64,000 nt of DNA from an uncultured Gammaproteobacteria bacterium (GTDB lineage Bacteria; Patescibacteriota; Patescibacteriia; Magasanikbacterales; GWA2-37-8). The stretch covers positions 53,018 through 117,017 of the forward strand of contig CAZHYJ010000001.1 in assembly GCA_964536725.1 (NCBI GenBank), in the 5' to 3' direction. This document shows, in pieces, positions 1,491 through 43,077 of this stretch (its first letter is position 1; the number at the start of each line of letters is the position of its first letter). The position numbers and the translations under genes are program-made. The notes beneath the pieces are model-generated. The model was given only the letters and a program-made list of their open reading frames with translations, searched no databases and had not been told where the DNA came from.

Positions 1491-2640
1491 GAATTTTAGT
1501 ATGTTGAAAAGAATTGGTATATTTTATGTCAACGCTGGTGGTGGTCATAGCGGTACGGCCAAGGCTTTAGCGCGTGAAATTACCGAAAAATATGCCGATA
1601 TTGCCGAGCCTGTTTTGGTTGATGCGGGTGCGAATAGTGGTAGATTTTCCCATTGGATATTGACCAAAGGATATGGGTTATGGACAAACAGCAGTCATTT
1701 TATTTTGCTCTGGTGGATTTTTTATTGGGCGAGCCAATTTTTGTGGGTCAGACGTATTTGGGTGAAAATGTTTCGCAATCAAAAGCATGTGAACAAATTA
1801 GTAAGAGATGGGCGTTTTGATATTGTGATTTCTCTATATTTTTTCATCACTCCACCGTTGGCAAAGGCGGTAAAAAGCATTAGTCCGCAGACGGAAGTTT
1901 GGTCGGTGGTGACCGATCCTTTTACAGTGCCAAAAATTTGGTTTTATGAAAAAAATGTTAAATATTTTGTTTTTTCCGAGTTGGCAAAAAAGATGGCATT
2001 GTCCGAATGTATTGTGGAAGAAAATATTTCAGTAGTGGCGCCGGTGATTAATAATAAATTTTTACAGGCACGTGGATTAGATAAAAATGTGGTGCGAGAA
2101 AAATTGGGTTTACCGTTGGATAAAAAAATAATTTTGGTGGCGGCGGGGGGTGACGGGTTGTTTAATGGAGGTAAGGTTGTTCGAGCGCTAACGAATTTGT
2201 CAGATGATTTTCGGTTGATTGTCGTGTGTGGGCGTGAGCAAAGTTTTCTTGATCAAGTAAATTCGTTAAAAGAAAAGTATCCTGATAAAATATTATGGGC
2301 AATGGGTTTTGCAGAAAATATGGAGGAATTAATGGTGGCAGCCGATCTGGTTGTGGGTAAAGCTGGGCCAGCAGTAGTGTTTGAATCTTTAACGATTGGG
2401 CGTCCATTAGTTTTGACCAATTATATCTGGGGACAAGAAAAAGGCAATCGTGATTTTGTGGTGGAAAACGGTGTGGGGAAGTATGAACCACATACCGACC
2501 GGCTGGCGCAGACGGTGAGTTATTTTTTTGCTAATGAGGCGGAGTACAAAAAAACTATGGAAAAAATTGGAGCACTATCATTCCCAATCGGGACGGATGA
2601 GATATTGGAAAAAATACTAAAAACAAAAGAGGCTGAATAA
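1489..2640 (+). CDS. Family 28 glycosyltransferase (MGDG synthase / UgtP-like diacylglycerol glycosyltransferase)
   Basis: N-terminal ..FYVNAGGGHSGTAKALAREI.. is typical of the MGDG-synthase N-domain. A C-terminal GT28-like domain follows (..VAAGGDGLFNGG.., ..VVGKAGPAVVFESL..). Confidence 0.55.
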   Translation: MNFSMLKRIGIFYVNAGGGHSGTAKALAREITEKYADIAEPVLVDAGANSGRFSHWILTKGYGLWTNSSHFILLWWIFYWASQFLWVRRIWVKMFRNQKHVNKLVRDGRFDIVISLYFFITPPLAKAVKSISPQTEVWSVVTDPFTVPKIWFYEKNVKYFVFSELAKKMALSECIVEENISVVAPVINNKFLQARGLDKNVVREKLGLPLDKKIILVAAGGDGLFNGGKVVRALTNLSDDFRLIVVCGREQSFLDQVNSLKEKYPDKILWAMGFAENMEELMVAADLVVGKAGPAVVFESLTIGRPLVLTNYIWGQEKGNRDFVVENGVGKYEPHTDRLAQTVSYFFANEAEYKKTMEKIGALSFPIGTDEILEKILKTKEAE

Positions 2641-2668
2641 AATCAGTCTCTTTTTTGAAAATCCGGGT

Positions 2669-2744
2669 GGGGGTGTCCTACGGGAGTTGAACCCGTTTTG
2701 TCGGTTCCACAAACCGACGTAATAACCGTTATACCAAGGACACC
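2669..2744 (-). tRNA. tRNA-His (anticodon GTG)
   Basis: Hand-folded cloverleaf. Extra G(-1) paired to discriminator C; anticodon loop TTGTGGA; T-arm ACGGG-TTCAACT-CCCGT; CCA encoded. Confidence 0.85.
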
Positions 2745-2838
2745 CCTACCAGGACTTTGTTGCAGTTCTGATTATATCGCATTATGTATTTTTTTTCAAC
2801 TGTCTGTGCTTCGCAGCGCCGTAGCTTTAGCGAAGGTG

Positions 2839-2910
2839 TGCCCCCAGTAGGAATCGAACCTACAACTCAACCTTAGAAGGGTCGTGTTTTATCCATTAAA
2901 CTATAAGGGC
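2839..2910 (-). tRNA. tRNA-Arg (anticodon TCT)
   Basis: Hand-folded. Acceptor GCCCTTA/TGGGGGC with G-U pairs; anticodon stem CGACC/GGTTG; loop CTTCTAA; T-arm GTAGG-TTCGATT-CCTAC. Confidence 0.85.
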
Positions 2911-2937
2911 AATTCAACAAGAGGATTATATTGTATT

Positions 2938-2966
2938 TTTACAAATAAATCAAGTTATGGTATTAT
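2938..2966 (+). promoter_or_regulatory. Sigma70-like promoter for pilin paralog 4 (-35 TTTACA, 17-nt spacer, extended -10 TGgTATTAT)
   Basis: The hexamers are seen directly; the start codon lies about 30 nt downstream. Confidence 0.45.
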
Positions 2967-2994
2967 TTAGAGGTAAATAAAAGTTATAACCTGT

Positions 2995-4071
2995 ATGAAA
3001 AAATGTTTTCTTCTAATTTTGCCGTTATTTTTATTGACGGTTTTTTTGTTTGGTTTAGCGCCGGTTAGTGCGCAAAATTTTGGATTAGAGGTGACGGGTG
3101 CTAAGGCAGGTTACAATAAAACCGACACGCCGGAGTCTATAACAACAACTGTTATAAATTCTGCACTGGCTTTGGTGTACATCGCTTTTTTTATCTTAGT
3201 ACTATACGCGGGTATTCGCTGGATGACGGCCCAGGGCAATGAAGAGCACGTTACTAAGGCAAAAAACATATTAGAAGCAGCGATTATTGGTGTAGTGATT
3301 ATCTCTGCGGCTTATGCGATTACGAATTTCATATTAGGCAAGGTAGGAGCGAATGGTGGAGGGGGTGGAGGTGGTGAGCCAACTATTCCTAGCGTATGTT
3401 CCGGTCCATCACTTGTTTGCTATGATTTGTCTCAGTGTGCTACGGCGGGCGGTGAAGAAGTATCAGGAAAAACCTGTGCTGGTTCTGATGAGATTTGTTG
3501 TGATATTGGTACTGGAGAAAGCACTGATATTTGTGAGTCTGATTCGGATTGTGGAGAGCAGCATTCCTGTTATTATAGTAAATGCAGACTGAAGTGTGGT
3601 AGTAATAATGATTGTGAAGATGATCAGGATTGTACAGGGGGTGTTTGTATAGAAAGTGTTGATAAGTGTGCGATAGCGAATTGTGATTCTAATCAAAATT
3701 GTGATCCAGAGACAGGCGCTTGTACTTACAAAACAGGTTGTTGCTTGACAGGTTGTACCGTGCAAACAAGTGATAAATGTTCAGGAAATTTTGCTCCAGA
3801 CAAACAGTGTTCCGAAGTGATAGGTTGTGGTTTGTCTAATTGTCAGCCAAATAATGCTGGATTAATTAGTTTTTGTAAAAAACAAGAAGTGAAAGACGAT
3901 TTTGGGCTTGTGGTATGTAAAACGGGCAATGAGACTTATTGTTTTTCTGGTATGCAAAAAGAGTGTTTACCAAATTCTTCGTTTAACCTAAATACTTTTT
4001 GTGCAGCGCGGGGACAGAGCACCTGTGATATTGGGTTTGGTGATCCTTCGATCTGTATTTGGAAATATTAA
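2995..4071 (+). CDS. T4SS pilin-like protein (paralog 4) fused to a roughly 230-aa hyper-cysteine-rich C-terminal domain
   Basis: The N-terminal 120 aa match paralogs 1-3 (..LYAGIRWMTAQGNEEHVTKAK..). A GGGGGGGG linker follows, then about 50 Cys in repeated 4-Cys units (C-x5-C-x5-C-x4-C). Confidence 0.6.
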   Translation: MKKCFLLILPLFLLTVFLFGLAPVSAQNFGLEVTGAKAGYNKTDTPESITTTVINSALALVYIAFFILVLYAGIRWMTAQGNEEHVTKAKNILEAAIIGVVIISAAYAITNFILGKVGANGGGGGGGEPTIPSVCSGPSLVCYDLSQCATAGGEEVSGKTCAGSDEICCDIGTGESTDICESDSDCGEQHSCYYSKCRLKCGSNNDCEDDQDCTGGVCIESVDKCAIANCDSNQNCDPETGACTYKTGCCLTGCTVQTSDKCSGNFAPDKQCSEVIGCGLSNCQPNNAGLISFCKKQEVKDDFGLVVCKTGNETYCFSGMQKECLPNSSFNLNTFCAARGQSTCDIGFGDPSICIWKY

Positions 4072-4088
4072 TTGTGTTGAGGTGCCCA

Positions 4089-4117
4089 TTGACACTTTCC
4101 CCATTTTCCGCTATAGT
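4089..4117 (+). promoter_or_regulatory. Near-consensus sigma70 promoter (TTGACA-17-TATAGT) upstream of rpsO
   Basis: TTGACA at 4089-4094, 17-nt spacer, TATAGT at 4112-4117. A GC-rich structured leader follows. Confidence 0.55.
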
Positions 4118-4199
4118 ATCCCCATAATTATTCCCGTTTAATCGGGGCCGAACCCTGCCGGACATGCCCGGAATGCGCTCGGTTAACAATATCGCATGT

Positions 4200-4568
4200 A
4201 TGTTAGACATCAAAAAGAAACAGCAAATTATCAAGAAATTCCAGACCCATGCTGGGGATACTGGTTCGAGCGAGGTTCAAATCGCCATTTTAACCTCAGA
4301 AATCGATGAATTGATCGAACACTTGAAGAGCCATCACAAAGATCATTCTTCTCGTCGTGGTTTACTTCGTAAGGTTAGTACTCGTCGTCGTCTGATGCGT
4401 TATCTAAAGAAAGATAACCCAGAAAGCTACGAAATTATCGCTAAAAAATTAAAAATCAAACAACCTCGTACAATTACCAAGTTAGATGCTTCTGGTAAAG
4501 AAGTCGCTGAAATTGAAGATTTAGAAGAGGTTGACATAGTGGAGGAAAAAGATGGAATTAAAGAATAA
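4200..4568 (+). CDS. rpsO: 30S ribosomal protein S15 with an acidic C-terminal extension
   Basis: MLDIKKKQQIIKKFQTHAGDTGSSEVQIAILT...HHKDHSSRRGLLRKVSTRRRLMRYL aligns with the S15 family. The ORF continues upstream to 4164, but the S15 alignment begins at M4200. Confidence 0.85.
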   Translation: MLDIKKKQQIIKKFQTHAGDTGSSEVQIAILTSEIDELIEHLKSHHKDHSSRRGLLRKVSTRRRLMRYLKKDNPESYEIIAKKLKIKQPRTITKLDASGKEVAEIEDLEEVDIVEEKDGIKE

Positions 4569-7680: not shown

Positions 7681-7752
7681 GCGGGTGTCGTATAATGGCT
7701 ATTATCCCAGTTTTCCAAACTGGTGACACGGGTTCGATTCCCGTTACCCGCT
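7681..7752 (+). tRNA. tRNA-Gly (anticodon TCC)
   Basis: Acceptor GCGGGTG/TACCCGC; anticodon stem CCAGT/ACTGG; loop TTTCCAA; T-arm ACGGG-TTCGATT-CCCGT. Confidence 0.85.
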
Positions 7753-7782
7753 CTTAGATGGCCAATAAACAGAGGGTCGACT

Positions 7783-7812
7783 TGACATTTTTGTTCAAAA
7801 AATATATATTAT
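7783..7812 (+). promoter_or_regulatory. Promoter for tRNA-Gly(GCC) (TTGACA, then TATTAT after about 18 nt)
   Basis: TTGACA at 7783-7788; an AT-rich -10 candidate at 7807-7812. Confidence 0.4.
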
Positions 7813-7832
7813 AAGTCGTCAAATAAAACTTG

Positions 7833-7906
7833 CGGGTATAGTATAACGGCTATTATGCGTCCTTGCCAAGGACGAGTCACGGGTTCGACTCCCGTTACCC
7901 GCTCCA
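7833..7906 (+). tRNA. tRNA-Gly (anticodon GCC), CCA encoded. Its 3' end overlaps the 3' end of the serine recombinase gene on the opposite strand.
   Basis: Acceptor GCGGGTA/TACCCGC; anticodon stem CGTCC/GGACG; loop TTGCCAA; T-arm ACGGG-TTCGACT-CCCGT; then TCCA. Confidence 0.85.
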
Positions 7907-9483
7907 ATGTGAATAAACAGCTTGAAAAGAGCTGTTTTTTCTTTTATCTTCGCAATAAATTGTCGGTTCTAACATGGCCTTTTGAAGGACTTCATCCTTT
8001 AAACCTTCACGCAAAGTTAAGTATGGTTTTTGCAGTTCAATATGCAGTTTTTTGTCCTTTAAATAAAAGTTCTGACCGAGCGTTCGTAAAATATCGGTTT
8101 TAATCTGTATGTCTCCGGCCTCAAATTTGATTTTGGCATAGGTGGCAAACTCAAAAGCACCTTCCGTTAATTCTACCCATTCATTGACCCCTGTCTCAAT
8201 TTCTCTTATCACACCCTCAATTCGCGCCTTCTCCGTCATTAAGGAATTTTTCTGTTCTCTATATTCGTTATCACTTAAAAATGTTCGGTCAGCGTTACTC
8301 GGTGATATAAACAAATTTATTAAATTATCTATGCTTTTAAGGCAGTTGTTATAATTTTCTTGTTGAGCCTTTAATACAATCTCCCGGTTCTTTTCCTCAA
8401 TAATATTTCTGTTCCTTAATATTTCAACAGCCCAATGCAAAAATTCTTCCGGTATAGTAATGGCATCTAGATAGGTAGAAATTTGTTTTAGAATTTCCTC
8501 ACTGGTTATTGATTTTTGGCTGCATGTCTTACCACATTTATTATGCGAGCAATGGTGGTAAAGATGTCTTTTAATACTTCCGTCCTTCATCTTTTTAAAT
8601 TTTTCTTCGGCAGTTATCATACCATCGCATTCAGCACAACGGATTATTCCATTAAAAGGTAACCTTTTATATTTAGGCCGTGGTTTTCCGCTCTGCCCTA
8701 ATATTTTTTGTGCCAAATCAAACTGTTCTTTCGTGATCATTGGTTCATGTTTGCCTTCGTATATTTTTCCATTATAAACAAATTCACCACAATAAAAAGA
8801 ATTGGTAAATATTTTATACATTGCACTTAAACATAATGGCTGGCCATCTTTGTTTCTCAATCCATACTCATTGCATACTATCTGATGAATTTGATTAACG
8901 GAGTAGTTGCCGGTTAGCAATAACCCCCAGGCTTTTTTTACCAACTCAAATTTTGATTCGTCTTTAAATAATCTTTTTTTACCTTTTTCTCCTGCTTTAT
9001 CGTTTAGATATCCGATAGCAGCAATGCCCGGTCTCCATCCTTTTTCAACTTTTGTATTCATTCCTCGCTTAACATCCTTGCTTAAGTCAAGGACATACTG
9101 GTTGGCCATGCCAAACTCAACAGCCATCATCAATATGTTGTCGGTGGGTAAGTATTCTCTACCAGGCGTAACAATTGATTTTATTATCCCTTGTTGTAAA
9201 AGCCATTGTATCTCACCGCCATCAATTGGATTTCTGGCTAGACGGTTTAATTTCCAACAAACCACACCATCTGCTTCGCCGCGTTTTATCATTTTCATCA
9301 TTTCATCATATTGTGGTCTACCTGGTTTCTTTGCCGACATTGATTCGCCAAATGTTTTGATAATATTTAAGCCTTTTCTTTTAACTTCATATCCTAACTC
9401 CTTTTTTTGATCATCAATAGATTGAACTTGACGATCTTCGGAATCAGTAGATTTTCTACAATACATGATATAGCGTAATGACA
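7895..9483 (-). CDS. Large serine recombinase (resolvase-type N-domain, recombinase domain and zinc-ribbon), integrase of an integrated element
   Basis: N-terminal ..YCRKSTDSEDRQVQSIDDQ.. holds the catalytic-Ser region. ..VVCWKLNRLARNPIDGGEI.. and a Cys cluster (..CAECDGM...HHCSHNKCGKTC..) follow. The ORF is open to 9541; the likely start is MSLRYIMYC at 9483. Confidence 0.8.
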
Positions 9484-9510
9484 TATAATTTAATTTTAAT
9501 AATAAATAAA

Positions 9511-9630
9511 AGGACGGTCTGGTTGACCCAACTCTATACATTCCGAAGGAATGATATCGCTGGCAGACCGCCCTTTTATGGCAGTGATATCAAAAAATAA
9601 AACCTTCGGATAGATTATAGGTTGGGTCAA
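9511..9630. repeat. Nested inverted repeats just upstream of the recombinase start: GTTGACCCAAC/GTTGGGTCAAC, CCGAAGG/CCTTCGG, GGACGGTCTGG/~GGCAGACCGCC
   Basis: Seen directly. Candidate operator or recombinase-binding site. Confidence 0.4.
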
Positions 9631-9706: not shown

Positions 9707-10105
9707 TTATGGCGGTCTTTCAAACCCTTGAATCTCTCTCAACAGGCGATGTCCTTGTTGTTTTGCTGTTTTGGGACTAAATCCTGCCCGAATTGCCGCC
9801 TCTTTGGCATTGCCTAATGTTGCTATGTAGTTATGCAAAAAACGTAGTCTCCGCAAACAAGGCCCATTAAACGCTGGAAGGCGCTTCACAATTGTGTTGT
9901 TCATGACATAGTCTGCAATATAAAAAAATACTAATTTATTTGGTTTGCAAAAGATAAGATCCCTTATAAAACGTATCTCTTGAATATTAAACCTTGGTAG
10001 TTTTTTAGGTTTTTTAAAATCGTCTGATAGATATAATGTATTTAAACACTCTATAAGAAATTTGGTGCTATAAGTCGTTTCCTTCTTGGTGTGGGTTTGT
10101 TTCAT
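9707..10105 (-). CDS. Protein with a C-terminal terminase-small-subunit-like HTH
   Basis: ..IATLGNAKEAAIRAGFSPKTAKQQGHRLL.. resembles the Terminase_2 N-terminal DNA-binding motif. Confidence 0.4.
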   Translation of the reverse strand: MKQTHTKKETTYSTKFLIECLNTLYLSDDFKKPKKLPRFNIQEIRFIRDLIFCKPNKLVFFYIADYVMNNTIVKRLPAFNGPCLRRLRFLHNYIATLGNAKEAAIRAGFSPKTAKQQGHRLLREIQGFERPP

Positions 10106-19892: not shown

Positions 19893-21068
19893 ATGAGGCC
19901 AAACAATGAGGGCATATCAATCGGTGCAACAGAACTTTCGCGTGAAAGGGTCCTTGAAATGTCACCAAAAGAATTGGTTGATTATTTTACTCACCTTGAA
20001 GAATCTGGGGGATTAGAAGCATACTTGCAAAGAGCTTCCAAGGATGATGCTTTGGTTGCTATGTTTAGTTATTGGGAAAAGTGGTTGACAAATGATCAGC
20101 GCGCGATGGTTGATGATATTGTAAGACAGAAAAAAGAGTTATATCCTGGAAACAGTGAGTCATTACCACTAGAATTGGAAAAAAGGTTTACTGGAGACGA
20201 ACTTGAAATTATTTTTTCAAATTTATTAGCTATACAACTTACTTTTGGTTGCTCCAAAGGTTGTCCGTTTTGCGGTTTTGATGCGGTTCCTGGCGTAAGA
20301 GAACACATACCTTATTCTCAATTGGCTAATATGTTTCAGAGGTTTGGTAAAGAGATTGGGGAAAGTAAGCCGTTGTTGTATTATGCTTCAGAACCAACCG
20401 ATTACCTCGACGAAGATAATACATACATGGATGTGCATCAGTTGGCAGTAGAGTATGCTAAGTATAAGCCACATGTAACGAGTAAAAATACTGATACTGA
20501 GTGGGTTGATTTTTTATCTAAAAAAGTAAATAAACCAAGAATAAGCTTGTTTGGTGTTCCAGAAGAATCAATATTAAATTTGGAAAGCTTGTCTGCAATC
20601 ACAGGTATTGAATTAGGGGGAAGACAAAAAAAACACTTTGAGGGTTTGGGAGTTTCAAGACAAAAGACAGAAGCGCCATTTAGTGTTGGGATAGGCTGTG
20701 GAAGTGGTATCTTAATTACACCACGAGGTTTGTATAATACTTTAACTTTATCAAGGACCAGCGATAGGTTTCCTCAGGGTATAGCAATTCAACCGTTTGA
20801 AAAAGAAGATGATAATTTTGATATAAAAATAGGGTCAGATGTTGTTGAAATAATGAAGAATACTTTAATAGGCAAGTTGCGTGCCATTACTGGTTTTTTC
20901 TTCGTAAGACAGCATGGTGTAAAAGTGTATGTAAAAGTTAATGACGCTGGTAAAGTTGTTGATTTTTACAAACAAAACGAACCTTGGAACCGGGCTGATC
21001 ACCAGCCATTTTTTGTGGAACTTGTTGATAGGCTCTTAGCGTCTGAGAAAGTAGCTGGTGTAAAATAA
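19893..21068 (+). CDS. Hypothetical protein with a CxxxCxxC motif (..TFGCSKGCPFCGFD..), possible radical SAM-like enzyme
   Basis: Only the CxxxCxxC motif was noted; the remaining radical-SAM signature was not checked. Confidence 0.4.
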   Translation: MRPNNEGISIGATELSRERVLEMSPKELVDYFTHLEESGGLEAYLQRASKDDALVAMFSYWEKWLTNDQRAMVDDIVRQKKELYPGNSESLPLELEKRFTGDELEIIFSNLLAIQLTFGCSKGCPFCGFDAVPGVREHIPYSQLANMFQRFGKEIGESKPLLYYASEPTDYLDEDNTYMDVHQLAVEYAKYKPHVTSKNTDTEWVDFLSKKVNKPRISLFGVPEESILNLESLSAITGIELGGRQKKHFEGLGVSRQKTEAPFSVGIGCGSGILITPRGLYNTLTLSRTSDRFPQGIAIQPFEKEDDNFDIKIGSDVVEIMKNTLIGKLRAITGFFFVRQHGVKVYVKVNDAGKVVDFYKQNEPWNRADHQPFFVELVDRLLASEKVAGVK

Positions 21069-21327: not shown

Positions 21328-22200
21328 ATGGCTAAAATATCTAATGTTTTCAATAAAATAAACGACTTACGTAAACGTTATTATTTAGCGGCTGTTGGCA
21401 GACAATCACTTTTGAAATTAATTAGCGAAACTGAAGTAGCTGAACAAGTTTACAATTCTAATGCTATAGAAAACAGCACTTTGTCCCTTGAAGAAACAGA
21501 AAAAATTCTACTGCAAATAGATCTGGACAGATATATTTCTGAGCGAGAAATTTTTGAAGCTAAAAATTTAGCACGTGTGGTCTCATATATAGATACCAAA
21601 GCTAAAGAAAAAGAACTCGATTTGGATGTTATTTTGATGTTACACAAAATGTTAATTAGTAATATTAGAGAAGACGTAGCGGGACGTTTTAGAAAAGAAA
21701 ATGAGTGGGTGCGAGTTGGTAATCATATAGCAGTTGATCCTAAAGAAATAATTGGTCGCTTAGAAAAAATGCTAGCTGAGTACAATGCCGAGAGCCAAGA
21801 AAATGTTATAAAAAGAATAGCACGTTTGCATTTAGCTTTTGAATACGTTCATCCTTTTGTCGATGGTAATGGTCGAATTGGTAGAGTGTTAAATAATTAT
21901 TTATTGATCAGAGAAGGGTTTGTGCCGATAAATATTAAATTTATTGATAGAAAAATGTATTATGAAGCATTCAAAGAGTTTGACACCAATGAAGCGACGG
22001 GTGTAATGGAGGAGATCGTCGGCCGTGCTTTGACCAATAGTTATCATAAGAGGTTGGCATATTTAGAGAGTAAAAATATTATTACCCTTAAAGAGTACGC
22101 ACAAAAAAATAAAATATCACATTCAAACGCTATCAACAAGGCTACTCGTCAAACTATTGAAGCTTTTTTGGAAAAGGGAATTTGGAAAATTGGAGAATAA
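21328..22200 (+). CDS. Fic/Doc-family protein (putative AMPylase)
   Basis: The canonical Fic motif HPFVDGNGRIGR is present. Confidence 0.8.
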   Translation: MAKISNVFNKINDLRKRYYLAAVGRQSLLKLISETEVAEQVYNSNAIENSTLSLEETEKILLQIDLDRYISEREIFEAKNLARVVSYIDTKAKEKELDLDVILMLHKMLISNIREDVAGRFRKENEWVRVGNHIAVDPKEIIGRLEKMLAEYNAESQENVIKRIARLHLAFEYVHPFVDGNGRIGRVLNNYLLIREGFVPINIKFIDRKMYYEAFKEFDTNEATGVMEEIVGRALTNSYHKRLAYLESKNIITLKEYAQKNKISHSNAINKATRQTIEAFLEKGIWKIGE

Positions 22201-22692: not shown

Positions 22693-24441
22693 TTATTTAA
22701 AAAGCGATATAATAAAACAGTTTTTGGTAACGTGGGTTGACAAAGTATGAAATGCGAGTATAATAGGGGATAGATTACATCGCGGGGTAGAGCAACCAGG
22801 CAGCTCGCAAGGCCCATAACCTTGAGGTTCCCGGTTCAAATCCGGGCCCCGCAACAATGTTGGACTCTGGTCATATAAAGTGGCCAGAGTCCTTTTTGTT
22901 AAAGGGTCTTCCGGAGGTTCGAAGTTTTTTTTAATCTCTTTTACTTCTTTGGACGCCTCTTCTAAAAGCACGAGCGGTTTTTGCGCTTGGAAAAGCACTT
23001 TTCCGTCTTTAAGTAATAGGTTCGAACCGAGACCCGACAGAATACTGCGTTTTGTAAATATATTATTTTCTTGGAACTTTTCTCTGGCAATTTGGGCGAA
23101 TGAGAAAATCTTTCCCGCCCTTTCTTTAGACTTATCCTCTTGGTTATTTTTACCAGATAATATATATTCCAAATTTTCTTTCTCTTTATTAATTTCAGCC
23201 TTTTTTTCTTTGGCTACCGTTTCAGATATCTCGCCGTTAATACGCATGTCCACTATAGTATCTAGTTTTTTGAGACAAGATGCTAGGGATTTTTCTAAGT
23301 TGGATACTATAATATTTTGATCGTTTTCTTTTTGTTGAGTTTCGTTTTTTAATTTTTCCAAAGCCCAAACACAGAAATCATTCGGTATCTCTATTCTATT
23401 CAGGATGTCCGTAATTTGCTCCTCGATTTCTTTTTCTTGGACATACCTCTGTGAGCAGTTGGGATTCTTTTGTTTGGTACAATGATAATATGTATATACA
23501 TGGGTGTTACCATTTTTTTGTTTCTTAACTCTTAATTCAGCGGTTATCATTGCTCCACATTCGCCACAACGTAATGGCCCCCGAAAAGCGAAATCGAATT
23601 TTTTCGGTCGCGGTTTATTTCGACCAGATATAATATCTTGTATTTGATCAAATTCTTCTTTGGTTATCATCGCGGGATGCTTTCCGTCATACCAGTTTCC
23701 ACTACCTTGGGGGTATTCATATCTACCATAATAGAACGGCAGAGTGAACATGCGGTAAAAAGTACTACGACCGATCGGTTTTCCGTTATCCATACGGAAT
23801 CCCCACTTATGAGTTATTACACGCCATAATTCTTGGACAGTGTACTGTCCAGTTAACATCTCTCGGAACGCTCTTTGGATGATGGGGAAGCGCTCTTTAT
23901 CTATCAAGATACACCTTGATCCGCCGGTGAGATTTGGAGTGTTTAAGTACCCTGTGGGGGCGTGTGAGGGATATATACCCATTTCTGCTTTAGTACGTAA
24001 TCCTCTGGCCGTATTGTGGCGTAGGTCGATAATGTATTGGTTAGCCATGCCTAACTCTACAAACATCATTAGGACGTTGTCGGTGGGGTAATAATCGCGA
24101 TCATAAGCCCGTATGTGTTGGATAATACCTTGTTGGAGCATCCAGTTGATAATACCGCCGTCAACAGGGTTTCTGGCCAAACGATCTAGTTTCCAACAGA
24201 CGATGCCGTTGGCCTCACCTTTTTTTATTCGTTCCACCATTTCATTAAACTCAGGGCGTGCACCAGGTTCTTTGGCCGAGTGGGCTTCGGTGAATGTCTT
24301 AACGACTTTAAGGCCGTCACGTCCAACGAGTTTTTTCATTTCACTAATTTGGGAATCGATAGAGAGGGCTTGTCGTTCTTCGCCCTCACTACTTTTTCTG
24401 CAGTAGAGAAAATATCTTAGTGGTTTTTTGTTGCTTCGCAT
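22693..24441 (-). CDS. Large serine recombinase, paralog of the one at 7895-9483
   Basis: ..YCRKSSEGEERQALSIDSQ.., ..IVCWKLDRLARNPVDGG.., and a Cys cluster (..CGECGAM...HCTKQKNPNC..). The ORF is open from 24483; the likely start is MRSNKKP at 24441. The C-terminal roughly 55 codons read through the tRNA-fMet antisense. Confidence 0.8.
   Translation of the reverse strand: MRSNKKPLRYFLYCRKSSEGEERQALSIDSQISEMKKLVGRDGLKVVKTFTEAHSAKEPGARPEFNEMVERIKKGEANGIVCWKLDRLARNPVDGGIINWMLQQGIIQHIRAYDRDYYPTDNVLMMFVELGMANQYIIDLRHNTARGLRTKAEMGIYPSHAPTGYLNTPNLTGGSRCILIDKERFPIIQRAFREMLTGQYTVQELWRVITHKWGFRMDNGKPIGRSTFYRMFTLPFYYGRYEYPQGSGNWYDGKHPAMITKEEFDQIQDIISGRNKPRPKKFDFAFRGPLRCGECGAMITAELRVKKQKNGNTHVYTYYHCTKQKNPNCSQRYVQEKEIEEQITDILNRIEIPNDFCVWALEKLKNETQQKENDQNIIVSNLEKSLASCLKKLDTIVDMRINGEISETVAKEKKAEINKEKENLEYILSGKNNQEDKSKERAGKIFSFAQIAREKFQENNIFTKRSILSGLGSNLLLKDGKVLFQAQKPLVLLEEASKEVKEIKKNFEPPEDPLTKRTLATLYDQSPTLLRGPDLNREPQGYGPCELPGCSTPRCNLSPIILAFHTLSTHVTKNCFIISLFK
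22781..22854 (+). tRNA. Initiator tRNA-fMet (anticodon CAT)
   Basis: Near-identical to E. coli tRNA-fMet: CGCGGGG acceptor with a C1-A72 mismatch; anticodon loop CCCATAA; T-arm CCCGG-TTCAAAT-CCGGG. It lies entirely antisense inside the 3' end of the recombinase-2 ORF. Confidence 0.8.
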
Positions 24442-24512
24442 ATAAGAATAATTAAAAATTCCATTAAACCACGGTAATAACATGCCTTACAATATGGCGT
24501 CAATAATTATAA

Positions 24513-26063: not shown

Positions 26064-26687
26064 TTAATAGTTATTGATTAAATTTTTTACTGCTTCCTTA
26101 AAGTTGTAATTATAGAGTAATTGAATAAGCTTTATACTATTCCCACCTTGTTGGCAACCAAAGCACTTAAAAGTATTTGTTTTGGTGAATACCGTGAAGG
26201 ATGGGGTTTTTTCTTTGTGTAGAGGACACAGGCACACTAGGTTCCTGCTCGATTTCCTAAATGGCCCAGGCAACAAAGCTTGTATTGGGACAGTGTTAGC
26301 TTGGTCGATTTGTTCTTGTGTTATTAAACCATCTCTTGGTTTTTTACCATGAAGAAAATTATGTTGACGATGGAGACGGAACAAATGCTTATCAATTTCA
26401 ACCAGTTCCGGAATAAATAAATATTTTACGCAGTCTCTGTTGAACTGTTTAGAAAAAGCGTTCATCGGGGACTCATTAATGCGAACGAGTATTTCATTAA
26501 TGTGCTTTGTTAATAATATTCGTTTTTCTTTCCACTCATTAATTTTTAATTGGATGACCGCTCGCGCTTCTGGAAACCAGCTGAACAACTCCGCGTCTGT
26601 GGGGTGGGGCAGCATCTCTCGTTCCTTTTCGATATCTAATGCGTTAAACAAGAATTCTATTTCTTCATTTGTTGGCAGATTATCCAT
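26064..26687 (-). CDS. DnaG-type CHC2 zinc-finger (primase zinc-binding domain) protein
   Basis: ..CLCPLHKEKTPSFTVFTKTNTFKCFGCQQGGNSIKL.. matches the zf-CHC2 pattern CPxHxEKTPSFxV...CFGCxxGG. Confidence 0.6.
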   Translation of the reverse strand: MDNLPTNEEIEFLFNALDIEKEREMLPHPTDAELFSWFPEARAVIQLKINEWKEKRILLTKHINEILVRINESPMNAFSKQFNRDCVKYLFIPELVEIDKHLFRLHRQHNFLHGKKPRDGLITQEQIDQANTVPIQALLPGPFRKSSRNLVCLCPLHKEKTPSFTVFTKTNTFKCFGCQQGGNSIKLIQLLYNYNFKEAVKNLINNY

Positions 26688-38541: not shown

Positions 38542-41500
38542 ATGCATACTGCCACGGCCACGCGAACTTTCAAAGTCGATAATGATTTTAAATATTCTCC
38601 GGAAAATGGTTTGCGTTTCAAGCGTCACTTCACGCAAGATGGAGTAAGTCCGTATGATTTGTTTCAGTATGAGTTACGCGCTTCAGTTATTCGTGAAACG
38701 AGTGGTCGGGTAATTTTTGAAATGAACGATGTTGAAGTTCCAACTGTTTGGTCGCAAGTGGCGACTGATATTTTGGCACAAAAATATTTTCGTAAAGCCG
38801 GTGTCCCGCAATATGATGCCGATGGTCATGCTAAGCTTAATACTGACGGGACTCCCGTGCTTGGTCCTGAGAAAAGTGTTAAACAAGTTGCCCATCGGCT
38901 AGCTGGTACTTGGCGTTATTGGGGAGAGAAGTTTGGCTATTTCGCTTCCGTTGGTGACGCACAAGTTTTTTATGATGAACTAGTTTACACTTTGATCAAA
39001 CAGATGACTGCACCGAATTCTCCGCAGTGGTTTAATACTGGCTTATATTGGGCGTATGGAATTAACGGTCCTTCGCAAGGTCATCATTACGTTGATCCAA
39101 CTACCGGAGTGTTGATGGCGGCTACTGATTCATATTCTCACCCTCAGCCGCATGCTTGTGGTCGTTATGATACAAAATTATTTACCGATCGCGGCATAAT
39201 GAATTTGGGAGATGTGGTGGAAAACAATATGGCGGGTATAAAAGTATTCGATGGAGAAAATTATGTTGTCGTGAAGGCGGTAAAGAACAATGGTGTCAAG
39301 AAAATTTATCGTGCCAATTTAAAAAATGGAAATTATTTGGATTTTACTGACGATCATTTGGTGTGGTCAGCGGACAAACGTCTAAAAGATGGTGGCCAAT
39401 ATGATTGGAGTGAGTTGTCCACAATCTTAGGAAAAAAAGTGCAACAATTCTCTTTGCCTGCAGAGGTAAGTAATGTGGCTAAAGAAAATGATTTAGATTT
39501 GTTCCAAGCAGAGTTGGCAGGTTGGGTTTTGGGTGATGGGTATTATGGAAAATATGGTAAAAACAAGAAGAGTACGGTATTTGGGGTGATAACAATCAAC
39601 GATGATGAGTTTAATAGCGTAACCAATTTATTCAACAACGTTTTCGGGCGTTATACAGTAAGGATAAAACGTTCAGTGGATGACTTGTATCGGACAATTT
39701 GTTGTGATTCTAAGCAAGTAGACGAATATGTGCAGAATTTTGAATTGGAAAAAAATGTCTATACAGCGTCTGTGCCAGAAAAGATTTGGCAGGGCAGTAA
39801 CAGGGTGAAGGCAGTCTTCTTGCGTGGTCTGTTTCAGGCTGACGGTAGTGTACGTTTGAGAAAAGATGATGATCGAAATAGCGGAGATGTGGTTTTGACT
39901 ACTGTGTCAGAAGAGTTGGCACATGGAGCACAAATGTTGTTGTTACAATTAGGAATATATTCTCGAATCGTACCTTGTCATGATAGTCGCGAAGATCGAC
40001 ACGAATGTTATCAGGTGGTTATTGCTTTTTATTCAGAAAGAAAGAGATACGAGGAGTTAATTGGTTTTGTTTCGCAAGATAAACAGGAGAAATTGAAATT
40101 GTTAAACAGCATAGTGGAAGGGAAAAACAAAGAAAATTTATCAGAGGAGACAGTCGTGTCAGTTGACTATATCGGTGAGGAAGAGGTTTATGATATTCAG
40201 ACGGAATCCAGCAAATTTTTGGCCAATGGCGTGGTGGTACACAACTGTTTCATTCAATCCGTGCGCGATGATTTGGTGAACGAGGGTGGTATTATGGATC
40301 TGTGGATTCGTGAGGCACGATTGTTTAAATATGGATCAGGTACGGGCACTAACTTTTCTAATTTGCGTGGCAAGGGAGAAAAATTATCAGGTGGTGGAAC
40401 GACTTCGGGTTTAATGAGCTGGTTGAAGATTGGTGATCGTGCAGCTGGTGCGATTAAATCTGGCGGCACCACTCGTCGAGCAGCCAAGATGGTAATTTTA
40501 AATATTGATCATCCGGATATCGAGGAGTTTATCAACTGGAAAGTTTTGGAAGAGAAAAAAGTGGCGGCTTTGATTGCTGCTGGTTATGATTCCTCCTATG
40601 AAAGTGAGGCCTATCAAACTGTTTCGGGGCAGAACTCTAATAATTCAGTGCGTGTTAATCAAGCATTTTTGGAAGCAGTGGAAAGTGGTATTGATTGGAA
40701 TTTGACTTGGCGCACTGATGGTAAGGTTTGTAAAACGTTGCCGGCGCGTAATCTTTGGGATCAAATCGCACACGCTGCTTGGGCTTGTGCTGATCCTGGT
40801 ATTCAATTTGATTCGACCATTAACGAGTGGCACACCTGTCCGCAGTCGGGCACGATTAACGGCTCCAATCCTTGTAGTGAGTACATGTTCTTAGATGACA
40901 CAGCCTGCAATTTAGCGTCAATAAACTTGGCTCATCTTTATGATTCAGAAACTGCGACCTTTGATATTTCTGGATTTACTTATGTCACTCGTCTGTGGAC
41001 GGTAGTTTTGGAGATTAGTGTTTTGATGGCGCAATATCCAAGCGCTGAAATTGCCCAAGGTAGCTATGACTATCGCACGCTTGGTTTAGGTTATGCCAAC
41101 ATTGGTTCGCTGTTGATGACAGCAGGCGTGCCATATGATTCGCCAACCGCCTTGGCTTTTGCTGGCAGTGTGACAGCTTTAATGACTGCTGAATCCTATG
41201 CCACCTCAGCTGAAATGGCGCGACTACATGGTCCATTTCCTAAATACGAAGAGAATCGCGCCGATATGCTGCGTGTGATTCGCAACCATCGCCGTGCTGC
41301 CTTTGGTGTTTCAGATGATGAGTATGAAGGGTTGTCTGTAATGCCGTTATCTATTGATCCACAATATGCTCCAGCTTATCTTTTGGCGGCAGCGCGTGAA
41401 AGTTGGAACAAAGCTTTAGAGATGGGGGAGAAATATGGTTTTAGAAATGCCCAAACTACCTTGCTTGCTCCAACTGGTACAATTGGTTTGTTGATGGACT

Positions 41501-43077
41501 GTGCAACTACCGGTGTAGAACCAGATTTTTCTTTAGTGAAGTTTAAAAAATTGGCCGGTGGCGGATATTTTAAGATTGTAAATGAATCGGTACCGATGGC
41601 GTTAAAAACTTTAGGGTATAACGATACACAGATTAGTGGTGTAATTGATTATCTTAAGGGTCGTGCGACTTTGCACAACTGTCCAGAGATCAACTTTGAG
41701 TCTTTAAAAGCAAAAGGTTTTACTGAAGAAGATATTAACAAAGTAGAAAAAGGTTTAGCGGGGGTTTTTGAACTACCATTTACTTTTAATGTTTGGACTT
41801 TGGGTGAGGAGTGTTTGAAACGTTTAGGGTTTACCAGCGAACAATACAATGATCAGAATTTTGATCTACTGACCGCGCTTGGATTTACACGCGAGCAAAT
41901 TAATATTGCTAACGAATTTGTTTGTGGTGCTATGACAATTGAAGGTGCGCCACACTTACGTCAGGAGCACTATGCTGTATTTGATACGGCTAATAAAAAC
42001 GGAAGAAAAGGTGAGCGTTATATCCACTACCTCGGTCATATCCGAATGATGGCGGCAGTACAACCGTTTTTATCGGGCGCAATTTCCAAAACCATCAACA
42101 TGCCAAACGAGGCAACTGAAGAAGATATTAAGATTGCTTACAACGCTTCGTGGAAGTTGGCTTTGAAAGCGATCGCGATTTATCGTGATGGTTGTAAATT
42201 GTCTCAGCCATTGTCGAGTAAGAGTGTTGATAAAAAAGAAAAGAAAGAAGAAGTTGTGTCAGTAGAAAAAGAAATTATGTCAACGCCAGTTGCCAGTGCT
42301 ATGCCAGCACATTCTGACAGCCAGATGCAGGTTAGTTATGCGCACGATGGATCGGAAAATGGTAAACAGATATATATACATGGCGAGCAGCGTAAGATGC
42401 CTTACAAACGCAGTGGCTTAACAATTAAAGCAAAAGTGGGTGGGCAAAAATTATTCTTGCGCACGGGTGAATATCCAGATGGGAAATTGGGTGAAGTATT
42501 CATCGATATGTACAAGGAGGGGGCGTCGTTCAGAAGTCTGCTTAATTTGTTTGCTATTTCCATTTCTACTGGCTTGCAATACGGCGTGCCATTGGAGGAA
42601 TATGTCGACAAGTTTATCTTTACTCGTTTTGAGCCGAGCGGCATGACGGATCATCCAAATATTAAGCTTTCAACTTCGATCGTTGATTTCATTTTCCGGG
42701 TACTTGGTATGGAATATTTGGGACGGACCGATTTTGTTCAGGTTAAACCAGCGGGCATTCAAAAAAATCGTGTGGAGCAATTGGCAAAATTAATGGCGGA
42801 AGCGGCTGGGCAAAAAACAATGGAATTGCCGGAGATAAAAGAAGACACTGAAGACGAAGTGGAAAAAGAAAAAATAATTTTGAAAGATCCAGAGGCAACG
42901 AAGGACCAGATGGAATTGTTTAAAAAAGAGGTCGCTGCAGCAACAGCTAGTGTTGATCAGCAGTTGGCAGGAATGATGGGTGATGCACCGCCATGTTCAA
43001 CTTGTGGACATACTACAGTGCGTAGCGGAACCTGTTATAAATGTTTGAATTGTGGTGGAACCACGGGTTGTAGCTAA
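38542..43077 (+). CDS. nrdJ: Class II (adenosylcobalamin-dependent) ribonucleotide reductase NrdJ interrupted by an intein
   Basis: RNR motifs are ..GSNPCSEYMFLDD..CNLASINL.. and a C-terminal Cys4 finger (CSTCGHT...CYKCLNCGG). An in-frame 363-aa insertion sits at the conserved ..PHA|C..HN|CFIQS site. Confidence 0.85.
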   Translation: MHTATATRTFKVDNDFKYSPENGLRFKRHFTQDGVSPYDLFQYELRASVIRETSGRVIFEMNDVEVPTVWSQVATDILAQKYFRKAGVPQYDADGHAKLNTDGTPVLGPEKSVKQVAHRLAGTWRYWGEKFGYFASVGDAQVFYDELVYTLIKQMTAPNSPQWFNTGLYWAYGINGPSQGHHYVDPTTGVLMAATDSYSHPQPHACGRYDTKLFTDRGIMNLGDVVENNMAGIKVFDGENYVVVKAVKNNGVKKIYRANLKNGNYLDFTDDHLVWSADKRLKDGGQYDWSELSTILGKKVQQFSLPAEVSNVAKENDLDLFQAELAGWVLGDGYYGKYGKNKKSTVFGVITINDDEFNSVTNLFNNVFGRYTVRIKRSVDDLYRTICCDSKQVDEYVQNFELEKNVYTASVPEKIWQGSNRVKAVFLRGLFQADGSVRLRKDDDRNSGDVVLTTVSEELAHGAQMLLLQLGIYSRIVPCHDSREDRHECYQVVIAFYSERKRYEELIGFVSQDKQEKLKLLNSIVEGKNKENLSEETVVSVDYIGEEEVYDIQTESSKFLANGVVVHNCFIQSVRDDLVNEGGIMDLWIREARLFKYGSGTGTNFSNLRGKGEKLSGGGTTSGLMSWLKIGDRAAGAIKSGGTTRRAAKMVILNIDHPDIEEFINWKVLEEKKVAALIAAGYDSSYESEAYQTVSGQNSNNSVRVNQAFLEAVESGIDWNLTWRTDGKVCKTLPARNLWDQIAHAAWACADPGIQFDSTINEWHTCPQSGTINGSNPCSEYMFLDDTACNLASINLAHLYDSETATFDISGFTYVTRLWTVVLEISVLMAQYPSAEIAQGSYDYRTLGLGYANIGSLLMTAGVPYDSPTALAFAGSVTALMTAESYATSAEMARLHGPFPKYEENRADMLRVIRNHRRAAFGVSDDEYEGLSVMPLSIDPQYAPAYLLAAARESWNKALEMGEKYGFRNAQTTLLAPTGTIGLLMDCATTGVEPDFSLVKFKKLAGGGYFKIVNESVPMALKTLGYNDTQISGVIDYLKGRATLHNCPEINFESLKAKGFTEEDINKVEKGLAGVFELPFTFNVWTLGEECLKRLGFTSEQYNDQNFDLLTALGFTREQINIANEFVCGAMTIEGAPHLRQEHYAVFDTANKNGRKGERYIHYLGHIRMMAAVQPFLSGAISKTINMPNEATEEDIKIAYNASWKLALKAIAIYRDGCKLSQPLSSKSVDKKEKKEEVVSVEKEIMSTPVASAMPAHSDSQMQVSYAHDGSENGKQIYIHGEQRKMPYKRSGLTIKAKVGGQKLFLRTGEYPDGKLGEVFIDMYKEGASFRSLLNLFAISISTGLQYGVPLEEYVDKFIFTRFEPSGMTDHPNIKLSTSIVDFIFRVLGMEYLGRTDFVQVKPAGIQKNRVEQLAKLMAEAAGQKTMELPEIKEDTEDEVEKEKIILKDPEATKDQMELFKKEVAAATASVDQQLAGMMGDAPPCSTCGHTTVRSGTCYKCLNCGGTTGCS
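39157..40245 (+). other. Intein with a LAGLIDADG homing-endonuclease domain inside nrdJ
   Basis: It starts with Cys (CGRYDTKLFTDRG..) and ends ..VVVHN before extein CFIQS. The motif ..LAGWVLGDGYYGK.. is present. Splicing would restore the conserved ACF active-site region. Confidence 0.7.

Follow-up and report, generated by a model that had tools for sequence, protein, structure and literature searches.

A large part of bacterial diversity belongs to the Patescibacteria, which are apparently host-attached, and the way in which they recognize their hosts is largely unexplained. Arrays of VirB2-like pilins are established in this group and essential in Candidatus Southlakia, the one species tested (PMC10633639, PMC12102498, PMC12857230), and the role of the type IV secretion system (T4SS) and pilin arrays of Patescibacteria has been called 'completely unknown' (PMC11665869). 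Elsewhere, the modules grafted onto the S. sanguinis pilins PilB and PilC have been proposed to be tip-exposed and adhesive (PMC8179133), the diversity of VirB2 paralogues in Anaplasma and Bartonella has been read as antigenic or host-interaction variation (PMC3556328), and Cys-rich (~7%), strain-variable extracellular proteins of Peregrinibacteria have been proposed to function in attachment (Anantharaman et al. 2016, PMC4736985). Here we describe a gene at positions 2995–4071 (+ strand) of a 64,000-nucleotide (nt) stretch of contig CAZHYJ010000001.1, called the window below, from a Magasanikbacteria-like member of the Patescibacteria. Its open reading frame (ORF) of 358 codons, with the stop codon at 4069–4071, runs without interruption from a VirB2-like pilin core into a long Cys-rich tail. 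The same architecture is present in a 357-amino acid (aa) protein from another sample (P0001) that is 97% identical to this tailed pilin.

Comparison of syntenic loci shows that the tail is a sharply bounded cassette, exchanged as a whole or module by module in the interval from the K-V-G-A codons that end the core to the promoter of rpsO. When eight diverged loci from seven lineages (L001/L088, L081, L083, L084, L085 and L086/L087) are each compared with the window using blastn, the flanks are 70–94% identical, homology ends at ~3350 (range 3325–3377) and it resumes at 4084–4089. Junction alignments place the left border immediately 3′ of K-V-G-A (3340–3351, + strand), the final conserved codons of the core; position 3340 itself is codon K116. 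The right border coincides with the TTGACA sequence (4089) that forms the −35 box of the rpsO promoter and lies 18 nt past the stop codon of the tailed pilin. Between these borders, the segment 3352–4083 (+ strand) has no homologous DNA counterpart at any of the diverged syntenic loci. A common gene order (pilin array, glycosyltransferase, tRNA-His/Arg, tailed pilin, rpsO) is found at L001/L088, L081–L085, L086/L087 and L090 and, judged by this synteny, the tailed pilins there are positional orthologues of the window gene. The tail thus behaves as an allelic cassette, in that the core and the two flanks around it are conserved.

The extent of replacement is evident from ten syntenic proteins, whose cores are 65–99% identical and whose tails, of 86–343 aa, are unrelated or mosaic, with Cys counts of 8, 12, 14, 18, 20, 22, 32, 32, 34 and 38. 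One additional allele, L090, was recovered by a protein-based rescan of metagenome contigs and has a tail of 58 aa with 6 Cys; a scan of the same contigs for the exact rpsO-promoter pattern gave 0 matches. The clearest case is P0002, which is 97% identical to the window protein in the core and 94% identical in the downstream DNA, and has an unrelated tail of 86 aa. Point mutation cannot remove all similarity at such low divergence, and the P0002 tail must therefore have been replaced. A search with the full-length protein returned 24 proteins, 23 of them at E <= 1e-12 and all aligned through the pilin core only; every one of the 23 except P0001 continues into a different Cys-rich C-terminus.

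The sharing of tail modules is incongruent with the relatedness of the cores. The window protein and P0002 (cores 97% identical) and P0004 and P0006 (89%) have no tail parts in common, and tail modules are common to P0004 and P0007 (72%) and to P0007 and P0009 (65%). The motif C-x-(D/N)-G-x-K-(D/N)-G-x-E-(S/T)-D-V-D-C-G-G-x-C recurs in P0004, P0007, P0008 and P0009 (the tails of L084, L083 and L085), occurs twice in P0009 and corresponds to no Pfam family in the scans run. Its presence in several alleles indicates that Cys modules have been shuffled to give mosaic tails. Pfam searches of ten other long tails found no domain, P0004 giving a single sub-threshold match to DPY. As a source of this diversity, a diversity-generating retroelement was considered and rejected: the window contains neither a template repeat nor a silent copy, its scanned ORFs include no reverse transcriptase, and the change is one of wholesale replacement rather than of substitutions at A sites. 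The best candidates for a second copy of tail segments within the window are exact matches of 11–13 nt or stretches of 24–28 nt at ~80% identity (E >= 0.37).

A fusion created by a frameshift, a possibility raised in an earlier note on this sequence, would make the tail an artefact, a separate downstream Cys-rich gene joined to a pilin gene by a frameshift or misassembly. Interruptions do occur at the locus, as the L083 tail is split in two. At L083 (4001–5298), a 277-aa ORF overlaps a 155-aa ORF, and the corresponding L085 gene (282–1664) is a single one of 460 aa; the split is a premature stop or frameshift within the tail, due to pseudogenization, phase variation or sequencing error. The window ORF, however, is continuous, an independent assembly (L082) has the same fused gene of 357 aa, and core and tail lie in one ORF in P0001 and all positional orthologues. 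All alleles are core–tail fusions in which the tail has neither a start codon nor a ribosome-binding context of its own, and we give an artefact next to no chance.

Recombination can be seen between otherwise identical strains, where tracts separate the sequences at the core/tail junction and at tRNA-Arg. L082, which comes from a different sample, matches the window exactly over codons 167–358 and departs from it elsewhere by five scattered upstream substitutions and two patches. The first patch (3241–3492, + strand) straddles the junction and has 41 differences in 250 nt. Its core part contains 1 non-synonymous and 12 synonymous codon changes and its tail part 10 and 8 (Fisher P = 0.008), all Cys within the patch are unchanged, and the Gly linker that follows the core differs in length from that of the window. 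No donor for this patch was found among the sampled lineages. The second patch is the tRNA-Arg region, where the L082 tRNA-Arg is identical at 73 of 73 positions to that of the distant L086 lineage and at 54 of 73 to that of the window. Among the window, L081, L082, L084, L086 and L088, the tRNA-Arg(tct) gene (2838–2910, − strand) exists as two alleles, 74% identical, that cut across strain relatedness, the window sharing its allele with L081 and L082 with L086. L082 also lacks 79 nt (2758–2836) between the two tRNA genes.

Cassette replacement, non-synonymous change biased to loops and retention of Cys are also what would be expected of a variable shield or decoy with the same anatomy, diversified by escape from phages or predators under negative frequency-dependent selection. 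Other T4SS pilin arrays have been read in terms of antigenic variation, including the C-terminal hypervariable region of Anaplasma VirB2 (PMC3556328, PMC12102498), and a prophage-like element nearby points to phage pressure in this genome. Over half of the paralogues lack a tail altogether, and escape alone does not account for the building of tails of 230–343 residues with 32–38 Cys. It is compatible with an adhesin role, so that the two readings are not exclusive, and as the explanation of the tail we consider it unlikely.

The first part of the protein has the expected features of an exported pilin. A Sec-type signal peptide is predicted at residues 1–26 (MKKCFLLILPLFLLTVFLFGLAPVSA, followed by QNF; 2995–3072, + strand) from a hydropathy peak over residues 1–29 and an A-x-A-like site found by eye and kept in the orthologues, placing the likely cleavage after residue 26, between APVSA and QNF. 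Residues 43–113 (3121–3333, + strand) match the Pfam T4SS_pilin family PF18895 with a score of 34.1 bits, compared with a curated cut-off of 26.6, over positions 2–71 of the 71-position profile. An AlphaFold2 (AF2) model built from a 27-sequence alignment has helices at residues 47–78 and 83–118, with predicted local distance difference test (pLDDT) scores of 74–83, in agreement with hydropathy segments at 1–29, 48–79 and 91–118. The helices are connected by the loop RWMTAQGNEEHVTKAK, whose W-M-T-A-x-G part is invariant across the family within the consensus YAG-x-x-WMTAQGNE-x-VTKAK. By the Pfam criterion, the core is a PF18895 type IV secretion (VirB2/TrbC-like) pilin. The pilin core fused to a Cys-rich domain in the earlier note is thus borne out as a fusion in one ORF, with the qualification that the core belongs to the type IV secretion and not the type IV pilus pilins. 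The latter identity was rejected for lack of a class III signal peptide, in place of which is a 26-residue Sec-type leader ending in VSA before Q. Neither Pfam nor NCBIfam returned a type IV pilus pilin family for this protein.

Beyond the core, the residue order is K-V-G-A, N, seven Gly, E and then the tail (residues 129–358; 3379–4068, + strand). The Gly run, previously given as Gly8, is a Gly7 linker (G121–G127; 3355–3375, + strand) that Tandem Repeats Finder reports as a codon run of GGTGGAGGG repeated 2.4 times. The tail contains 32 Cys in 230 residues rather than the approximately 50 first claimed; at 13.9%, compared with 1.05% for a set of 26 long window ORFs (binomial P ~9e-26), the description as hyper-Cys-rich nevertheless holds. 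The tail is acidic (32 D+E, 15 K+R) and has no hydrophobic segments. Its Cys are more evenly spaced than chance would produce: the coefficient of variation of the gaps is 0.49 in the tail and 1.03 in shuffled sequences, with 0 of 20,000 shuffles as low; 12 consecutive gaps are of 3–6 residues, and shuffles reach 9 at most; and C-x4-6-C-x4-6-C-x4-6-C units occur 3 times against an expectation of 0.19 (P = 0.00035).

High Cys content is the one property of the tail that would suit a metal-binding or redox domain of the metallothionein, zinc-ribbon or iron–sulfur type. No C-x1-2-C motif is present anywhere in the tail, whose list of Cys gaps includes neither 1 nor 2, and there is a single His, which argues against metal or iron–sulfur sites. 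The tail is also predicted to be extracytoplasmic, the parity of Cys numbers in the family is even, and no family of this type is matched; an intracellular domain, which had been named as a possible outcome, does not appear in Pfam or NCBIfam either. We therefore regard this explanation as barely credible. The properties found are instead those generic to disulfide domains, namely predicted extracytoplasmic location, an even Cys count and Cys that are kept while loops vary.

Three parts of the tail can be distinguished. The membrane-proximal segment (C135–C169; 3397–3501, + strand) has six Cys with gaps of 6, 5, 12, 6 and 0, which fit the spacing range of 13 short 6-Cys tails from the family (P = 0.001 in shuffles). 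A profile hidden Markov model (HMM) of those short tails scores this segment no better than shuffles, so the likeness is one of spacing only. There follow three 4-Cys hairpin-like units (residues 180–197, 201–218 and 225–243; 3532–3723, + strand). The earlier note had assigned C-x5-C-x5-C-x4-C to all three; the peptides are present, the first two have this spacing and the third is C-x4-C-x5-C-x6-C. The C-terminal half (C249–C354; 3739–4056, + strand) contains 14 Cys, has no recognizable repeat and is modeled with pLDDT below 50. The term repeat-built is accordingly apt for about a quarter of the tail (the three units span 55 of 230 residues) and not for the rest: Tandem Repeats Finder detects in the DNA of the tail only the run of Gly codons, and self-BLAST between the units yields just 27–33 nt stretches at 70–74% similarity. 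The two exact 4-Cys units are the only part of the tail to reach pLDDT values of 70–84, and they are modeled as β-hairpins. The disulfide-knotted topology that had been proposed finds no support in the models, which are of low confidence and have no significant fold match.

Searches for relatives of the tail return almost nothing beyond its own allele. The tail has no match in Pfam or NCBIfam at E <= 10 or in PHROGs or PADLOC at E <= 1, none by phmmer against PDB sequences, and nothing below E = 0.1 among ~130 other collected pilin tails. An exhaustive phmmer search of 1.84 billion cluster representatives finds P0001 (97% identical) as the sole homologue, and four further matches at E ~4e-4 fall in unrelated proteins, on generic short motifs with Cys that are similar to the 4-Cys units. 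Foldseek comparison of the tail model, itself of low confidence, with the PDB gives nothing at E <= 1e-3 (best E 0.44); the top non-significant matches are Dkk4, an antistasin-type inhibitor, EGF arrays and a knottin, and we do not treat them as evidence. The third-position GC content of the tail (3352–4068) is 0.25, compared with 0.40 in its own core (P = 0.005) and 0.36–0.43 in neighboring genes. A foreign donor is weakly hinted at by this difference, which is not seen in six other tail alleles.

TrbC/VirB2-type propilins such as RP4 TrbC and Ti VirB2 undergo C-terminal processing. The tailed pilin could be a pro-protein in which the hairpin is an export or anchor leader and the tail is cleaved near K-V-G-A or the Gly linker and released as a toxin, inhibitor or signal that acts on the host cell, by analogy with polymorphic toxins, whose N-termini are conserved and whose C-terminal tips are swappable. 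Such a design is in keeping with the sharp boundary at this one locus between a conserved N-terminal part and C-termini that are unrelated, and with the fact that the best fold matches are to secreted Cys-rich inhibitors and knottins, though these matches were obtained with a low-confidence model and at E >= 0.4. The tail matches no family of toxins, peptidases or inhibitors, and no conserved cleavage motif is found beyond K-V-G-A. Nor is there an immunity-like gene on the 3′ side, where rpsO (4164–4568) starts 93 nt downstream in every allele. Release of the tail in this way seems improbable.

The tailed architecture is not confined to this locus. We used a profile of the core to search all ORFs of 80 related loci and the window, obtaining 553 complete pilin-core ORFs; the related loci come from metagenome-assembled genomes (MAGs) of Patescibacteria, mostly Candidatus Magasanikbacteria, and hold a mean of 6.9 such ORFs each in roughly 12 kb. 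In 53% of the 553 pilins, no more than 10 residues follow the core, and 104 have tails of 30 aa or more, of which 76 have at least 4 Cys and 58 at least 8% Cys, and only 9 of the 553 have tails longer than 200 aa. The window tail ranks fourth in Cys number, after L006 (52 in 413 aa), L005 (48 in 373) and L003 (36 in 309), and first in Cys density among tails of at least 100 aa. Homologous pilins thus carry different modules or none, as the earlier note had suggested checking. Its description of the arrangement as unusual does not survive the survey: all positional orthologues have a Cys-rich tail, and by the number of related pilins that do so as well, the tailed architecture is common in the lineage, with the window protein at the large end of a continuum.

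Parity provides a further indication of the nature of these domains. The Cys count is even in 91 of 92 tails with at least 2 Cys (P ~2e-26), a signature of exported, fully disulfide-paired domains. Together with the topology of the core and the lack of C-x1-2-C, this agrees with the extracellular, disulfide-type domain of the earlier note, whose suggestion of an adhesin role is plausible. The survey also revealed a recurrent short tail of ~35–50 aa with six Cys in the arrangement C-x5-10-C-x2-8-C-x8-12-C-x4-10-CC, often with GG before the second Cys. This tail occurs in the window pilin at 49–549 and in 13 related loci (e.g. L028 6357–6863, L029 6447–6959 and L042 6206–6904) and is an undescribed mini-domain of the pilin family.

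VirB2-type pilins, as in F and T pili, have both termini on the outer face and a basic loop directed toward the cytoplasm or lumen. In our model, Sec export and removal of the signal peptide would leave two hydrophobic helices paired as a hairpin in the membrane or filament, their conserved basic loop facing the cytoplasm or lumen. A signal peptide followed by two hydrophobic helices, with the loop so placed, means that the C-terminus would point outward; the tail would then be extracellular and tethered by the flexible Gly linker. Its 32 Cys could form ~16 disulfides, giving a compact, protease-resistant module made up of a segment with family-like 6-Cys spacing, three 4-Cys β-hairpin units and a unique 14-Cys region. 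This module may serve as a strain-specific binding surface with which an epibiotic cell recognizes a host cell or substrate, and might be displayed as a minor or tip subunit on a pilus of tail-less paralogues or, alternatively, on the cell membrane without polymerization. The conserved core and the rpsO promoter would be the sites of homologous recombination by which new alleles spread, a route that is plausible in the wider group given the natural competence shown for Saccharibacteria (PMC10633639, as summarized in the review PMC12857230). A modular VirB2-like pilin with an exchangeable disulfide-bonded surface module is in our judgment the best overall explanation, and we would give it an even chance of being correct.

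Several results weigh against this explanation. The TrbC/VirB2 family PF04956 scores 16.3 bits on the tailed pilin, below its cut-off of 27.9; the NCBIfam Mbov_0395 pilin-like model scores 22.9 against a cut-off of 40; a profile of 33 pilin cores finds among PDB sequences only spurious multi-repeat matches (designed 'Pizza' propellers); and Foldseek of the full-length AF2 model against the PDB gives nothing at E <= 1e-3. The case for a canonical VirB2/TrbC pilin is weak, as this identity is not demonstrable by sequence or fold. The AF2 models of the isolated tail and of the full-length protein have mean pLDDT values of 49 and 51, respectively, which is low confidence. VirB4, VirB6, VirB3, VirB8 and VirD4-like proteins were not recognized among 40 larger ORFs of the window, nor were T4SS machinery genes recognized in L088, the closest long relative, over the 10 kb to each side of its array. 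With no T4SS ATPase or channel gene visible nearby, assembly of the tailed pilin by a T4SS is presumptive. Such linkage is not obligatory, however, as pilins are reported to be linked to T4SS genes in only 1,135 of 1,948 assemblies (~60%; PMC12102498). No disulfide-forming enzyme was seen among the scanned ORFs of the window. We estimate from published F-pilus geometry that a 25-kDa domain on each subunit would crowd a VirB2-type filament, and display as a minor subunit is an assumption on our part. A binding function, a surface location and incorporation into a pilus are all three properties that we infer.

Some of these difficulties would not arise if the PF18895 hairpin were the membrane anchor of a non-polymerizing envelope protein, with a tail that is structural or associated with the cell wall or an S-layer and with no role in a pilus. 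This would suit the failure to recognize T4SS machinery near the array, the bulk of the tail, which on our estimate is hard to fit in a VirB2-type filament, and the glycosyltransferase and envelope genes found as neighbors. A purely structural role, however, predicts no allele-by-allele replacement of the tail between near-identical strains. The core is also under strong purifying selection along with tail-less paralogues, as expected of co-assembling subunits. An envelope protein of this kind is decidedly unlikely in our view.

Under the modular-pilin explanation, the tail is probably an adhesin or host-recognition part. A more specific proposal is that the tailed-pilin locus is a host-range determinant of the epibiotic bacterium and the VirB2-type pilus its recognition organelle. 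An exposed subunit would carry a disulfide-stabilized receptor-binding module that is exchanged by recombination in its flanks, as are the tips of phage tail fibers. This proposal is possible though doubtful; if true, it would give the unexplained, essential T4SS pilin arrays of the Candidate Phyla Radiation (CPR) a concrete role.

The tailed pilin is flanked by genes that are syntenic in its relatives. At the start of the window are three tandem pilin paralogues (49–549, 567–974 and 990–1460, + strand; phmmer with the core, E 2e-23 to 4e-20), of which the first has the short 6-Cys tail, the second none and the third a tail with 2 Cys. The array, of at least three members, extends beyond the window start; L088 and L083 each have 6 PF18895-annotated pilins at this position. 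An MGDG-synthase/GT28-type glycosyltransferase (1489–2640, + strand; Pfam), syntenic in all relatives, is followed by tRNA-His(gtg) and tRNA-Arg(tct) (2668–2910, − strand; ARAGORN), directly 5′ of the tailed pilin. A promoter-like site (TTTACA-17-TATTAT with a TG extension, 10 of 12 matches; 2938–2966, + strand) lies 29 nt 5′ of the start codon and, although a consensus match only, suggests that the tailed pilin is transcribed from its own promoter. On the 3′ side, the rpsO promoter-like site (TTGACA-17-TATAGT; 4089–4117, + strand) that borders the cassette is followed by rpsO, a NYN-domain gene and pnp. A hairpin at 4133–4147 in the rpsO leader is kept with compensatory changes between lineages (CCCGTTTAATCGGGG, CCCACTTCAAGTGGG and CCCGACTTGATCGGGG); it has no Rfam match, the two tRNAs being the only Rfam hits in 2600–4400, and is a candidate S15 autoregulatory leader.

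Other features of the window are listed here for completeness. The region 7681–28000 is a probable integrated mobile element or prophage remnant. It encodes two large serine recombinases, a DnaG-type zinc finger, proteins of the radical-SAM and Fic families and an ORF resembling a small terminase (ORFs at 7895–9541 (−), 9707–10105 (−), 19893–21068, 21328–22200, 22693–24483 (−) and 26064–26687 (−), with two tRNA-Gly genes at 7681–7906). The first serine recombinase abuts tRNA-Gly(gcc); in L088, two tRNA-Gly genes are found ~3 kb past pnp, with no recombinase in the L088 DNA examined. A tRNA-Met gene (22781–22855, + strand) lies inside the 3′ end of the serine-recombinase ORF at 22693–24483 (− strand), and either the end of this ORF is over-called or the element is integrated into the tRNA. 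A class II (B12-dependent) ribonucleotide reductase gene at 38542–43077 (+ strand) contains an intein with a LAGLIDADG homing endonuclease. We also note that public third-party annotation MAG records titled 'uncultured Gammaproteobacteria bacterium' (dozens of them, L001, L002 and L004 included, with several of the loci closest to the window among them) have Patescibacteria-type pilin arrays and the same synteny; judged by these, their organism labels look wrong.

The closest described systems are the VirB2-like arrays of Patescibacteria (Wang et al. 2023; Quinonero-Coronel et al. 2025), with which the window locus has in common PF18895, the phylum-level group, arrays of divergent paralogues and a signal peptide followed by a two-helix hairpin. 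The published pilins are small and variable, and the accessible portions of those reports mention neither Cys-rich extensions nor allele-specific tails. The window array is not beside virB4 in the DNA examined. We found no description of a Cys-rich, swappable tail on PF18895 pilins in the searchable part of the literature, which is not proof of absence. The VirB2 paralogues of Anaplasma and Bartonella are also multiple, and they differ mainly in hypervariable regions exposed at the surface, one of which is close to the C-terminus (PMC3556328). Those pilins are of normal size and vary over short stretches, in contrast to the whole Cys-rich domains of 58–343 aa described here.

Polymorphic toxins such as CdiA-CT, Rhs and MafB combine a conserved N-terminal delivery part with unrelated C-terminal cassettes exchanged by recombination. 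The tailed pilin resembles them in its conserved N-terminus, sharp demarcation and unrelated C-terminal cassettes at one locus. It differs in having no immunity gene (rpsO is next in every allele), no toxin domain and no orphan cassettes in the 64 kb, and disulfide-rich tails point to extracellular stability and not to delivery into a cytoplasm. The Peregrinibacteria proteins (PMC4736985) likewise come from the CPR, are high in Cys, have signal peptides and vary between strains, but they are ~1,655 aa long, are not fused to a pilin and have weak similarity to Myxococcus Cys-rich repeats. The window tail has no HMM match and no significant fold match to that repeat (TIGR02232), EGF, DPY, knottin or Dickkopf. 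It does resemble Dumpy DPY (PF21164) and Dickkopf/EGF-like modules in C-x5-C-x5-C-x4-C spacing and in acidic or Gly-rich loops, a likeness that we take to be convergent spacing.

The modular type IV pilins, exemplified by S. sanguinis PilB with its vWA module and PilC with its lectin module (Raynaud et al. 2021, PMC8179133), have the same plan of a small polymerizing carrier, a short linker and a grafted module. They belong to another filament superfamily and use a class III signal peptide, one N-terminal helix and the type IV pilus machinery, whereas the features predicted here are Sec export and a VirB2-type hairpin, and the module of the tailed pilin is hypervariable from strain to strain and belongs to none of the defined domain families. 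What appears to be new is the modular-pilin principle on a T4SS-type pilin with a hypervariable disulfide-rich cassette. The tailed pilin is a concrete candidate for a specificity-determining part, and the break in homology after K-V-G-A with its return at rpsO is a genomic marker that could be used to track strain-level host specificity in metagenomes. If our explanation is correct, the modular-pilin principle would hold for type IV secretion pilins as well as for type IV pili.

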